From the NCBI GenBank assembly GCA_964372485.1, contig CAYJQI010000001.1, positions 192,001 through 256,000 on the forward strand: a stretch of 64,000 nt of DNA. Reading direction: 5' to 3'. The DNA is from an uncultured archaeon. Its GTDB lineage: Archaea; Aenigmatarchaeota; Aenigmatarchaeia; CG10238-14; SCSR01. Both the position numbers and the translations under genes were made by a program. The notes beneath the pieces were generated by a model. It was given only the letters and a program-made list of their open reading frames with translations. It was not told the origin of the DNA and did no database searches. Position 1 is the stretch's first letter. Every line of letters begins with the position of its first letter. Below are positions 1-2,497 of this stretch, piece after piece.

Positions 1-2081
1 AGACTAGTTACACTTACGGGTTGAGGGATACTACATTCACACTCATTGACAAGATAACAAATGCCCTCGATCATCAAACTGACTTCAAGTATGATCTTGG
101 AACTGGCAATCTTCTTTGGAAGAAACAAAACGGGATATACACTTACTTTACTTACGACACTTTCGGGAGAATTTCTAAAGAAATACAGCCGTTTGATTCG
201 AGTGACCTTCCTACTAAAAGTTACAATTATTCATTCGACGGCGCTGCGCCTGAATCTATTGTAATAACTCAAAGAATTTCCGGGAACAGGACATACGATA
301 CTTACTTTTACTATGATGGTCTTGGAAATTTCATCCAGTTCAAAAAACCAAGTGATGGAAATAGGCAGATTGTCAAGAATCTTTTCTATGACGGATTGGG
401 TAGAGTTTCTGCAGAAAGCAATCCTTACTTTACAACATTCTCAACTGGATTAACAACAACGCAGAATTCTAATTTCATCAATTACACCTATGACTCATTA
501 TCCCGAGTGACTAATGTAACGAATCCTGATGGCAATAGCTCTAAGATAGTCTTCAACCGCTGGAACATCACTGCATACGACGAGAACAATCATCGAAAGA
601 TGTACGTCACCGATGCATATGGAAGAATAGTTAATGTTCTTGAATACAACAACGACCCTGTATTGAAACAGAACTTCGAGACCGACGCGTATATCACGGT
701 GTATCAGTATGATACTTCCGACAATCTTGTAAAGATTACAGATGCATTGGGCAACCAATTTGCATTTGTTTACGATTCTCTCGGAAGAAGGATTGAATTG
801 AGGGATCCTGATCTTGGGAATTGGAGTTACATATATGATGTTGCTGGGAATTTGATTCGTCAGGTTCAAGTTGGTGGAGGGAATCTTGTCACTGGAGATG
901 GATATTACAGGGAGTACAATGAGCTGAATCAACTGACGAAGATCAGGAATGGTTCCACGGTCACTGCAGGGCAATTGGAGAATTACACCTATGACCCGTT
1001 CGGCCAGAGGATCAAGATCATGCGAAACGACTCCGTCAAAACTATCGTCTACACTCCATTCAAGGAATTAACAAGAATAGTCAACACATCGGGCACGTAT
1101 GATTTCGTTTATGTCTACGACGAAAATGGATTGATCGCCAAGATCGATCCGGGGAATACGAAGAGGTATTACCATCTTGATCATCTGGGATCAACATCAT
1201 TAGTGACGAGGCAGACTGGAAGTTCTTTCGAGAATACGCATTATTCTCCTTACGGGGAAGTCCTTAGCGGAGGAGTGAAGGAGGATAAGTTGTACACAGG
1301 GCAGTTCTCCGATGATTTGGCTGACCAGTATTATTATGGGTGCAGGTATTACAAGCAGGGAACTGGGCAGTTTGTACAGCCTGATCAGTTCATTCAAGAT
1401 CCGTACAATCCACAGAATCTTAATCGGTATGCATACACGCTCAATAATCCATACAAGTATACCGATCCGACGGGGTGCATCATACAATTTGGACAGTTGG
1501 CAATAGGTACGAGTCTAATTGCTTCATACTTTACAGTAGTTTATAGTGATGTATTAACGCAACTGGTTACTGGGTTTATTTCCAGTATTAAAGCACCGTC
1601 ACAATTGAATCCGCAACCTTTAACTCCTGTAGATCCAGCAAAACCATCAACTATTACACCGCCAACAACAGGAGGAAATGTTGCTCCTAGTATTAATCCT
1701 AGTAATCAACCTTCACCAAGCGATATTATTGGTGAGACTATCGAGAGAGGAATGCAAGGAGTCACTCAAGCTTCTTCACAAGGTAGACAAACTACGATAA
1801 CAGAATCCTTTTGGGATAAAGGAACGTTTCAATCATCTAAAGACTCCATTACATATCATAACAAAATCCATGGTAAGGGATTAACATCTGAAGAACAAAC
1901 TAAAAGAGGTATCGATCTCTGGAATAAATACAAAAATGGCGATCCTTCCATAAAAACCGTTAGTGAAAAAGTACCTATTGCTGGAGGAAGAGAAGGTGTT
2001 AAATTAGTTGATAGATCTAACAATTGGTTTGGAATATACACAAAAGAAGGTAAAATTGTATCTACTGGATTTCGTAAATAG
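1..2081 (+). CDS. Rhs/YD-repeat polymorphic toxin, 5' end outside the window. The Rhs core ends at DPTG (nt 1464-1475) and is followed by a variable C-terminal region of about 200 aa
   Basis: The frame is open back to nt 3 (..YTYG), so the TTG at 21 is not the true start. Many YD repeats (YTYDSLSRVTNVTNPDGN, YDSLGRRIELRDPDLGNWSYIYDVAGNL, YTYDPFGQRI). Rhs-associated core signature YYHLDHLGSTS..YSPYGE..LYTGQFSD..YYYGCRYY..GQFVQPD..NLNRYAYTLNNPYKYTDPTG. Confidence 0.9.
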   Translation, partial: TSYTYGLRDTTFTLIDKITNALDHQTDFKYDLGTGNLLWKKQNGIYTYFTYDTFGRISKEIQPFDSSDLPTKSYNYSFDGAAPESIVITQRISGNRTYDTYFYYDGLGNFIQFKKPSDGNRQIVKNLFYDGLGRVSAESNPYFTTFSTGLTTTQNSNFINYTYDSLSRVTNVTNPDGNSSKIVFNRWNITAYDENNHRKMYVTDAYGRIVNVLEYNNDPVLKQNFETDAYITVYQYDTSDNLVKITDALGNQFAFVYDSLGRRIELRDPDLGNWSYIYDVAGNLIRQVQVGGGNLVTGDGYYREYNELNQLTKIRNGSTVTAGQLENYTYDPFGQRIKIMRNDSVKTIVYTPFKELTRIVNTSGTYDFVYVYDENGLIAKIDPGNTKRYYHLDHLGSTSLVTRQTGSSFENTHYSPYGEVLSGGVKEDKLYTGQFSDDLADQYYYGCRYYKQGTGQFVQPDQFIQDPYNPQNLNRYAYTLNNPYKYTDPTGCIIQFGQLAIGTSLIASYFTVVYSDVLTQLVTGFISSIKAPSQLNPQPLTPVDPAKPSTITPPTTGGNVAPSINPSNQPSPSDIIGETIERGMQGVTQASSQGRQTTITESFWDKGTFQSSKDSITYHNKIHGKGLTSEEQTKRGIDLWNKYKNGDPSIKTVSEKVPIAGGREGVKLVDRSNNWFGIYTKEGKIVSTGFRK

Positions 2082-2083
2082 GT

Positions 2084-2497
2084 GTGATAATGAAAAATGA
2101 AATGGGAAAAATCAGAATAAAAATAAAACAACTTTACAACTATTTGCAAGGAAGACATTTTCCAAGATTAAAAAATAATTTTAATAGCATGAAATTAGAA
2201 GACAAAGTTCTCGATATAAGGATAGATTTAATAGAATGGGATGCATGGGTTGTGGGATATACTGATACTTTAATTAAATATAAGGAAGTTAAATGGGACA
2301 ACGATCAGTTACTTTCAGATGTTAAAAGAATTGATAAACTTTTTGATGAAGTAAAAATACCTACTTTGGAAAAGATAGGAAACATATTTTTCGATTCTTT
2401 GATTGAGCGTAAAGAAAAAATCAAAGAATTAGTCAATCTACTTATACAATACAAAAACGAACTCGAAAAATCAAAACTGAAGGAGGATAAGTCCTAA
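2084..2497 (+). CDS. Candidate cognate immunity protein of the Rhs toxin (small cytoplasmic helical protein, no recognisable family)
   Basis: 137 aa with no signal peptide or TM segment. It starts 2 nt after the toxin stop and its stop overlaps the next start (TAATG). Position is typical of polymorphic-toxin immunity genes. Assignment is by context only. Confidence 0.5.
   Translation: MIMKNEMGKIRIKIKQLYNYLQGRHFPRLKNNFNSMKLEDKVLDIRIDLIEWDAWVVGYTDTLIKYKEVKWDNDQLLSDVKRIDKLFDEVKIPTLEKIGNIFFDSLIERKEKIKELVNLLIQYKNELEKSKLKEDKS

Follow-up and report, generated by a model that had tools for sequence, protein, structure and literature searches.

The left edge of a 64,000-nucleotide (nt) stretch of DNA from an uncultured archaeon (contig CAYJQI010000001.1, positions 192,001 to 256,000, forward strand; the whole stretch is hereafter "the window") holds two adjacent open reading frames (ORFs), ORF1 and ORF2, which are quite likely to be the 3' end of an archaeal Rhs polymorphic-toxin gene and its immunity gene. 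The module would be of the signal peptide-SpvB-propeller-RHS ("TcdB/TcaC") polymorphic toxin-immunity class. Behind a conserved shell and core, ORF1 carries a C-terminal tip of 201 amino acids (aa; nt 1476-2078), and the domain that ends this tip is probably a ribonuclease (RNase) toxin, to judge from its modelled fold. The features of the locus, all on the + strand, are as follows.

3..1475, +: 3' part of the Rhs gene (YD/RHS-repeat shell and Rhs-associated core), aa 1-491 of the visible fragment
1242..1475, +: Rhs-associated core, a putative aspartyl autoprotease plug, aa 414-491 (TIGR03696)
1449..1475, +: PYKYTDPTG demarcation motif, aa 483-491, with autocleavage predicted at or just past it; homology to the two relatives described below stops here
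1476..1778, +: part of the tip ahead of the toxin domain; ~38 moderately hydrophobic residues (CIIQFGQLAIGTSLIASYFTVVYSDVLTQLVTGFISSI), then a Pro/Thr/Ser-rich linker
1779..2081, +: C-terminal toxin domain with the stop codon, aa 593-692, predicted to be an RNase of the Barnase-EndoU-ColicinE5/D-RelE (BECR) fold
2090..2497 (ATG, 135 aa) or 2084..2497 (GTG, 137 aa), +: ORF2, candidate cognate immunity protein by position and profile match
2497..4497, +: ORF3, 666 aa, a conserved neighbour of the toxin-immunity module, in which a signal-peptide-like hydrophobic segment and a short YD-repeat region precede a long C-terminal part with many Asn-x-Ser/Thr motifs

Conserved shell and exchanged cassette

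ORF1 is open in frame 3 from nt 3 to 2081, with its stop codon at 2079-2081, and 692 residues are visible. The 5' end is cut by the window edge; the TTG at 21, its sole listed start, is a by-product of this truncation. The visible fragment matches Pfam RHS_repeat (E 3.6e-19, 69 bits, cut-off 22), NCBIfam TIGR01643 YD_repeat_2x (56 bits, cut-off 15.8) and, over aa 414-491, positions 1-75 of the 76 in TIGR03696 Rhs_assc_core (E 6.5e-16, 58.6 bits, cut-off 32.5). An earlier reading made from the DNA letters alone (the sequence-only reading) had called the gene a Rhs/YD protein whose core ends in PYKYTDPTG, had proposed profile searches with RHS_repeat and TIGR03696, and would have counted failure of the core in such searches against itself. 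All three profiles score above their curated cut-offs, and the motif falls at aa 483-491.

A scan of GTDB species genomes found one relative, an "uncultured archaeon" (CAZYBR010000002.1, a GTDB archaeal metagenome-assembled genome; L001), and a scan of JGI metagenomes found another on a metagenome contig (L009). Their full-length Rhs homologues are 1608 aa and 1620 aa long, respectively. Over aa 1-491/495 the shell of the window protein is 75% identical to L001 and 73% identical to L009, and beyond the motif the proteins are unrelated. At the DNA level, window positions 3-1354 and 2656-4251 align with the relatives at 68-73% identity, while the interval from ~1476 to 2655 has no DNA counterpart in L001 or L009, indicating that a cassette made up of the tip, ORF2 and codons 1-47 of ORF3 is replaced between conserved flanks. 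The three tips are mutually unrelated, and so are the three downstream ORFs, those of L001 and L009 being 111 aa and 193 aa long. The GC content of third codon positions (GC3) also breaks at the junction: it is 0.46 for the shell, 0.19 for the tip and 0.26 for ORF2. Conservation of the shell, swapping of the tip together with its ORF, and the GC3 break are defining behaviours of Rhs polymorphic toxin loci. The sequence-only reading had anticipated a variable tip after PYKYTDPTG and had suggested a survey of related genomes for the same core with other tip/immunity cassettes; L001 and L009 are two such relatives, retaining the shell and exchanging tip and downstream ORF exactly at the motif.

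Both relatives also carry an orphan shell-coding fragment between the downstream ORF and the ORF3 homologue (L001 12794-12994, L009 8896-9492). The two fragments are the equivalents, at 78% identity, of window aa 293-359 and 14-213, and finish in GFYEN or GFYDN right ahead of the ORF3 start; the window has no such fragment. They are typical marks of recombination that replaces tips.

The core of ORF1 contains the paired DP motifs DPYNP (aa 466-470) and DPTGC (aa 488-492), 17 residues apart. Paired DP motifs at a distance of 17 residues, with the catalytic Asp in the second, are the signature of characterised Rhs/TcC autoproteases (PMC8636562), and the spacing in ORF1 agrees with it. By this likeness D488 would be the catalytic Asp of the core autoprotease. 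D488 and G491 are kept in L001, and L009 retains the Asp and Gly too (RDTTG). Measured against the boundary signature PxxxxDPxGL, the final Leu is replaced by Cys in the window protein and the first DP motif is degenerate.

Could the Rhs protein serve mainly in surface adhesion or recognition, as teneurins and certain wall proteins with YD repeats do, attaching a small episymbiont to its host, with a tip that is vestigial or used in signalling? The locus does lie among surface-protein and glycosylation genes (ORF3, ORF4, GT2), the genome may be small (791-kb contig), and the FG-GAP propeller and the adjoining LamG/DUF2341 protein of the relatives could plausibly bind ligands. However, paired swapping of tip and downstream ORF is a signature of conflict systems and not of adhesins, the autoprotease Asp is retained, and the invariant residues of the toxin family, described below, are all intact in the window protein. 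We consider an adhesin highly improbable.

Predicted toxin domain and candidate immunity protein

A word-indexed homologue search with the tip gave no match, whereas an exhaustive HMMER search of 1.84 billion representatives yielded a family of 32 proteins at E<=1e-3 (best 1e-8). These proteins range in size from 66 to 2150 aa, and in almost all of them the domain sits at, or within a few residues of, the C-terminus. Its partners include Rhs cores (with NNPxxYTDPTG immediately ahead), PT-HINT, eCIS_core and Laminin_G_3. The largest member, P0016, carries the domain on a 2150-aa SpvB-FG-GAP-TcdB_midN-RHS protein; its locus, L002, is annotated "Candidatus Micrarchaeota archaeon" (MFH0971271.1). 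Five positions of the domain are invariant in the family, W12, H27, H31, G85 and G91, which correspond to W604, H619, H623, G677 and G683 of the visible fragment. Y26, T41 and a G..K pair are near-invariant, and the consensus of the last strand is GKIVT; the window protein has them all. The domain was found on no PLSDB plasmid. Two other members, P0029 and P0033, begin with an N-terminal eCIS_core (PF13699), a domain of extracellular contractile injection systems.

An alignment-based AlphaFold2 model of the domain (pLDDT 94, pTM 0.85) consists of three helices (residues 3-9, 20-31 and 37-52) followed by a four-stranded antiparallel sheet (58-67, 71-78, 83-88 and 93-98). It supersedes a single-sequence model of the whole tip, in which pLDDT was 63 overall and below 50 in the stretch encoded by 1476..1778. 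In a Foldseek comparison with the PDB the top match was the CdiA-CT toxin 8ey4_A (E 3e-3, probability 1.00, TM-scores 0.53/0.59), followed by four chains of the colicin D tRNase (1v74_A, 1tfo_A, 1tfk_A and 5znm_A) with TM-scores of about 0.46. All five are BECR-fold toxins.

The BECR fold is defined by N-terminal helices and a four-strand meander (PMC3482391), and the order of elements in the model fits this definition; the BECR RNases colicin D (1v74, 1tfo, 5znm) and CdiA-CT of E. coli O32:H37 (8ey4) likewise have helices and then a four-strand antiparallel meander. With a CdiA-CT toxin and the colicin D tRNase as its closest structural counterparts, the model suggests that the domain is probably a BECR-like toxin and an RNase. 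Within the fold, Ntox35 is a predicted clade described by the pattern "H, KH", that is, two N-terminal histidines, together with a Ser/Thr in the last strand, and its immunity protein is not known (PMC3482391). The His pair and last-strand Ser/Thr of the tip family fit that description, but the Lys ahead of the second His is not conserved in the family (the window protein reads YHNKIHG). The domain is either a divergent member of Ntox35 or a sister family. An equation of the first conserved His with the catalytic H611 of colicin D was rejected, since it relies on a non-significant alignment and disagrees with the chain numbering.

Several results weigh against the RNase assignment. It is based on fold similarity, with a Foldseek E of 3e-3 at best and TM-scores of 0.45-0.59. 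Neither the tip, nor 24 family members, nor the family consensus has a match in Pfam or NCBIfam, and in Pfam this holds even at E<=10, with Ntox35 and Colicin D included; in lacking a sequence-profile match the family differs from both. The domain itself matches no PDB sequence, and a profile of the tip family run against PDB sequences reached colicin D at E 0.17, which is not significant. The locus might then be a true Rhs toxin-immunity pair whose tip is something else, for example a DNase or a nucleotide- or protein-modifying enzyme. The structural link to RNases is modest (Foldseek E 3e-3 to 0.3 across the matches), and a literature search found no paper on 8ey4 or the CdiA-CT of O32:H37, nor, with it, an activity for this best match. 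We nonetheless think a non-RNase tip unlikely: the five top structural matches include no competing fold class, the secondary-structure order is that of BECR toxins, and a His pair with a last-strand Ser/Thr is the pattern of several BECR clades.

The hydrophobic segment that would lie at the N-terminus of the tip after cleavage was considered as a transmembrane helix and rejected as a clear one, its maximum Kyte-Doolittle value (1.36 in a 19-aa window) being under the usual threshold. The tips of L001 (aa 1409-1608 of L001:7328-12154) and P0016 have a Gly/Ala-rich hydrophobic stretch of glycine-zipper type right past the motif, for example AAAAGALIGGGIDLG...GGIGGLTFGAGTAVFGTGFGATVLSGAGAGIAGG, with a hydropathy above 1.6, stronger than in the window protein. 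Such a stretch may serve as a common module for membrane entry, with a different toxin domain behind it in each case.

ORF2 follows the toxin gene directly. The sequence-only reading had described a 137-aa ORF 2 nt downstream, which holds for the GTG at 2084; the ATG at 2090, giving 135 aa and a gap of 8 nt, is the likelier start, having GGTG just upstream and matching the public protein P0001. The product is hydrophilic (grand average of hydropathy -0.65) and has no long hydrophobic stretch. No match was found in Pfam or NCBIfam, and a word-indexed search returned only ORF2 itself, a singleton among 5.8 billion protein clusters.

To characterise what follows the tip domain elsewhere, we compared the contigs of seven other tip-family members, six of them with DNA. 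At each of these six loci an ORF of 102-117 aa begins no more than ~12 nt from the toxin stop, the extremes being an overlap of 10 nt and a gap of 11 nt, and on the seventh contig, represented by a gene listing, a 112-aa gene lies 5 nt downstream. The ORF is found behind the giant Rhs protein of L002, behind small secreted proteins (L003, L006 and L007) and at orphan cassettes behind another Rhs gene or beside IS66 (L004 and L005). The six proteins are homologous to one another, since leave-one-out profiles recover them with 12.7-64 bits, scores that none of 1000 shuffles reach; they share the motif P...D..L.D...DL.E.DG..AG and, like ORF2, match no Pfam or NCBIfam model. A hidden Markov model (HMM) of the six scores ORF2 at 17.5 bits and ranks it first among 246 six-frame window ORFs. 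Shuffled controls do not reach this score (0/3000 and 0/1000, best 11.5 and 13.5 bits), and hhalign aligns the family with ORF2 over 44 columns at E 1.8e-4. With 1.5 and -0.7 bits, the ORFs that follow the other tips of L001 and L009 stay at noise level. The match is thus specific and tracks the tip and not the shell, which is how a cognate immunity protein should behave.

Not all properties of ORF2 favour this role. The profile match is weak and confined to the N-terminal ~50 aa, about one third of the protein, and ORF2 is 20-35 aa longer than the other members of the downstream family. Its isoelectric point is 9.1 and that of the toxin domain 9.5, so both are basic; nuclease inhibitors are often acidic. 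These properties leave room for ORF2 being an unrelated small gene, or an accessory factor, such as a chaperone or adaptor, that serves either the toxin or ORF3, the latter being translationally coupled to it through the overlap of the ORF2 stop with the ORF3 start; that ORF2 is basic, has no known domain and stands alone among the protein clusters would suit such a role. We regard it as quite unlikely, because L001 and L009 have exchanged ORF2 along with the tip but have kept ORF3, because the family it matches follows the tip domain on every scaffold examined, including stand-alone or orphan cassettes with neither Rhs shell nor ORF3, and because the ORFs behind other tips fail to match that family. 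ORF2 is therefore best described as a candidate cognate immunity protein, by position and by co-variation with the tip, and its earlier designation as a gene in the immunity position gains from both sequence comparisons.

In L005 (1664-2334, and also in a sister contig) the tip domain is a free-standing protein of 111 aa, P0036, with a 107-aa downstream partner. The cassette lies ~2 kb behind a 2778-aa SpvB-propeller-RHS protein, with small DUF2283 and DUF5677 genes between them. The arrangement on this bacterial metagenome contig looks like an array of orphan toxin-immunity cassettes.

Predicted export, host and relation to known systems

The N-terminal two-thirds of the Rhs gene lie outside the window, so its export, its propeller and its intactness are read from the relatives, a further point that weighs against the assignment of the locus as a whole. 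Pfam matches in the L001 protein are SpvB, FG-GAP_3 (five stretches), TcdB_toxin_midN and RHS repeats. The L009 protein begins with a clear signal peptide (LKIKLKTFILLVIIGTLTLVPSALA|VDD); the remaining architecture of this 1620-aa homologue is taken from its length and N-terminal similarity to L001. A TcB-like and a TcC-like part are fused in a single protein in L001 and P0016, as seen by Pfam scan, and the window shows the TcC-like part alone. By sequence homology the full window protein would resemble its relatives, with a Sec signal peptide, SpvB, FG-GAP propeller, TcdB middle/N-terminal region and RHS shell. In L001 the Rhs frame is open upstream of the listed TTG (7163-7330), and a signal-peptide-like stretch there (KKVFIIITVSLSLFIINIQSVLAAVDDSYKPY...) resembles the N-terminus of L009. 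None of the codons ATG, GTG and TTG occurs in frame within this stretch, and the GTG at 7163, shortly before an A6 run, belongs to a different frame. A sequencing error in the homopolymer, a non-canonical start or a frameshift might each account for the anomaly.

A delivery component, TcA-like or of another kind, was found neither in the window nor beside the Rhs genes of the relatives, which also counts against the proposed function. The window has no ORF of TcA size, the largest being a 901-aa family B DNA polymerase, and the sequence around the Rhs genes of L001 and L009 (3-7 kb upstream, 5-11 kb downstream) likewise shows no gene for a TcA injectosome. The gene upstream of Rhs in both relatives encodes a secreted LamG/DUF2341 protein of 634-655 aa. 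The relatives, which begin with a signal peptide and SpvB, have no PAAR domain by Pfam, and no genes of a type VI secretion system (T6SS) were noticed among the window ORFs scanned.

The sequence-only reading had placed the DNA in an archaeal, possibly episymbiotic, genome. The archaeal origin is borne out by markers in the window: the family B DNA polymerase, domain 4 of an archaeal Hel308-type helicase, Nop5 and FtsZ. The GC content of the archaeal sequence is 34%. The window proteins P0001-P0004 are singletons at 90% identity and lie on a contig of 791,048 bp. The Micrarchaeota locus L002, which belongs to the DPANN group, agrees with the window in scaffold, tip family and downstream family, and P0016 has among its neighbours a type II methionyl aminopeptidase (above its curated cut-off) and endonuclease dU. 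From the contig size and this relative it is plausible that the window organism is of DPANN type; that it is episymbiotic is a guess. Further tip-family members come from bacteria (Pirellulaceae, Pirellulales). Exchange of polymorphic toxins between archaea and bacteria is a published view (PMC3482391), and the presence of the tip family in both DPANN and bacteria agrees with it.

How would such a protein act? In the mechanism we favour, the full protein would be a fused cocoon of the TcB-TcC type, exported by Sec and enclosing the tip, and the core aspartyl protease (D488 in DPTG) would cut at or just past the motif. On contact with a target cell the released tip of ~200 aa would enter, perhaps aided by its hydrophobic N-terminal segment, and its RNase domain would cleave cellular RNA through the His pair, probably tRNA if colicin D is a guide. 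In the producing cell and its kin, ORF2 would bind the RNase and block it. Candidate target cells are rival archaea, a host archaeon or bacteria. Entry without TcA, a T6SS or an outer-membrane receptor is the least understood step.

The kind of system, and this exact class, is known already from archaea. A class with signal peptide, SpvB, integrin-like propeller, RHS and a variable toxin was catalogued as TcdB/TcaC, with Euryarchaeota listed, by Zhang et al. 2012 (PMC3482391), and the same survey describes classical RHS polymorphic toxins with cassettes and immunity genes in Methanosarcina acetivorans. The sequence-only reading had stressed the rarity of Rhs toxins in archaea; this must be tempered, as RHS polymorphic toxins, the signal peptide-SpvB-propeller-RHS class among them, had been reported in Euryarchaeota (PMC3482391). 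L001 and P0016 have the architecture of this class, as L009 probably does, and the window gene shares its RHS shell, core, demarcation motif, variable tip and downstream immunity position. The window differs in its host, apparently a small-genome DPANN-like cell and not a methanogen or haloarchaeon, and in a tip and immunity candidate from families without a Pfam or NCBIfam model.

Two better-studied systems share the cocoon. In the Tc toxins, SpvB, propeller, TcdB-middle and RHS shell form a closed cage, and an aspartyl protease in the Rhs core frees the C-terminal toxin (PMC8636562). The Pfam domains of the relatives are those of the Tc (ABC) toxins of Photorhabdus and Yersinia (TcdB2-TccC3, YenB-YenC2), but B and C form a single polypeptide with predicted Sec export, no TcA gene accompanies them in the window or the relatives' flanks, and a candidate immunity gene follows, which points to prokaryotic and not animal targets. 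T6SS Rhs effectors such as Rhs1 of Photorhabdus laumondii have in common with the window protein the YD shell, a boundary of PxxxxDPxGL type, DP motifs 17 residues apart, an encapsulated toxin and a downstream immunity gene (PMC8636562). They differ from the relatives, which have a signal peptide and SpvB-propeller in place of PAAR, a VgrG-binding region or an Eag chaperone.

The closest functional analogue of the window system is WapA/WapI of Bacillus subtilis, in which a Sec-exported, wall-associated YD-repeat protein has a C-terminal tRNase tip and a cognate immunity protein. The window system, as predicted here, is like it in Sec-dependence, absence of an outer membrane, an RNase-type tip, an immunity gene directly downstream and swapping of tips from strain to strain. 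WapA has no SpvB-propeller-TcdB module, and its tip and immunity families are different.

What is new is likely to include the host type, DPANN; a literature search found no paper linking DPANN or Micrarchaeota to Rhs or Tc-type toxins. Also new, judging from the profile searches, are the toxin domain family and the linked downstream family, which lie outside current domain libraries; models for the two would fill that gap. Archaeal polymorphic toxins have been predicted by comparative genomics since 2012 and were described in 2021 as experimentally uncharacterised (PMC8416519). The locus offers a compact test case, with a toxin domain of ~100 aa, two obvious candidate catalytic histidines and a candidate antidote of 135 aa, and its natural comparisons are the two tip-swap relatives and the Micrarchaeota homologue with the same pair. 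If the organism is an episymbiont of DPANN type, the locus would bear on how such cells compete for or manipulate hosts, and on how cargo of a TcB-TcC-type cocoon is delivered without the TcA injector.

A more far-reaching proposal is possible but doubtful. In it, tip and ORF2 would be an undescribed family pair (a BECR-like RNase with YHxxxH and an immunity protein of ~100-135 aa with DL.E.DG..AG) common to DPANN (Micrarchaeota and this genome) and bacteria (Pirellulales), and in DPANN a Sec-exported, TcA-less, fused TcB-TcC cocoon would deliver the toxin from a cell-attached episymbiont to its host archaeon or to rival episymbionts. The smallest archaea would then possess a contact weapon whose delivery does without an injection machine.

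ORF3, ORF4 and other genes of the window

ORF3 matches NF041261 RHS_core (E 8.8e-9) and, weakly, RHS_repeat. From aa 48 on it is 66-68% identical to L001:13011-15200 and L009:9485-11677. The stop of ORF2 overlaps its ATG (TAATG), with AGGAGG upstream. ORF4, a protein of 851 aa with a C-terminal transmembrane anchor, begins 39 nt from ORF3 and at this distance is not coupled to it; it was rejected as part of the module, having no counterpart in L001 or L009. The sequence-only reading had held the toxin-immunity pair to be translationally coupled to two giant surface proteins as one surface-delivery unit. Coupling stands for the ORF2/ORF3 overlap and fails for ORF3/ORF4, the proteins (666 and 851 aa) are not giant, and the unit survives for ORF3, as conserved synteny alone, but not for ORF4.

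The homologues of ORF3 begin with an ATG right at the signal peptide (L001:13011, MKIRLPL...; L009:9503, MIIRIVT...). The equivalent codon in the window, in the region 2497-2640, is ATC (IKLIIKLF...), and window ORF3 opens 29 codons earlier at ATG 2497, with a strong AGGAGG, so that a 29-aa extension precedes the signal-peptide-like segment. Residues 65-298 of ORF3 (window 2689-3390) are 36% identical (E 2.5e-37) to an internal segment of P0016 (L002 9913-10632), which is an insertion relative to the window shell. These sequence similarities suggest that ORF3 may descend from a piece of Rhs shell that gained its own signal peptide.

No direct repeats of note were found in nt 1-8000. At 60259-60342 on the - strand Rfam predicts a tRNA of 84 nt (49 bits, gathering score 29), and ARAGORN finds no tRNA anywhere in the window; the gene may have an intron or another irregular feature, such as is sometimes seen in archaeal tRNAs. 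The ORF at 9152-10450 encodes a formyltransferase fused to a 5-formyltetrahydrofolate cyclo-ligase. Beside it, downstream of the surface-protein genes and the GT2 glycosyltransferase, the ORF at 8172-9155 encodes a FemAB-like/GNAT acyltransferase. FemAB-type enzymes are unexpected in an archaeon, and this one may modify a surface glycan or peptide.

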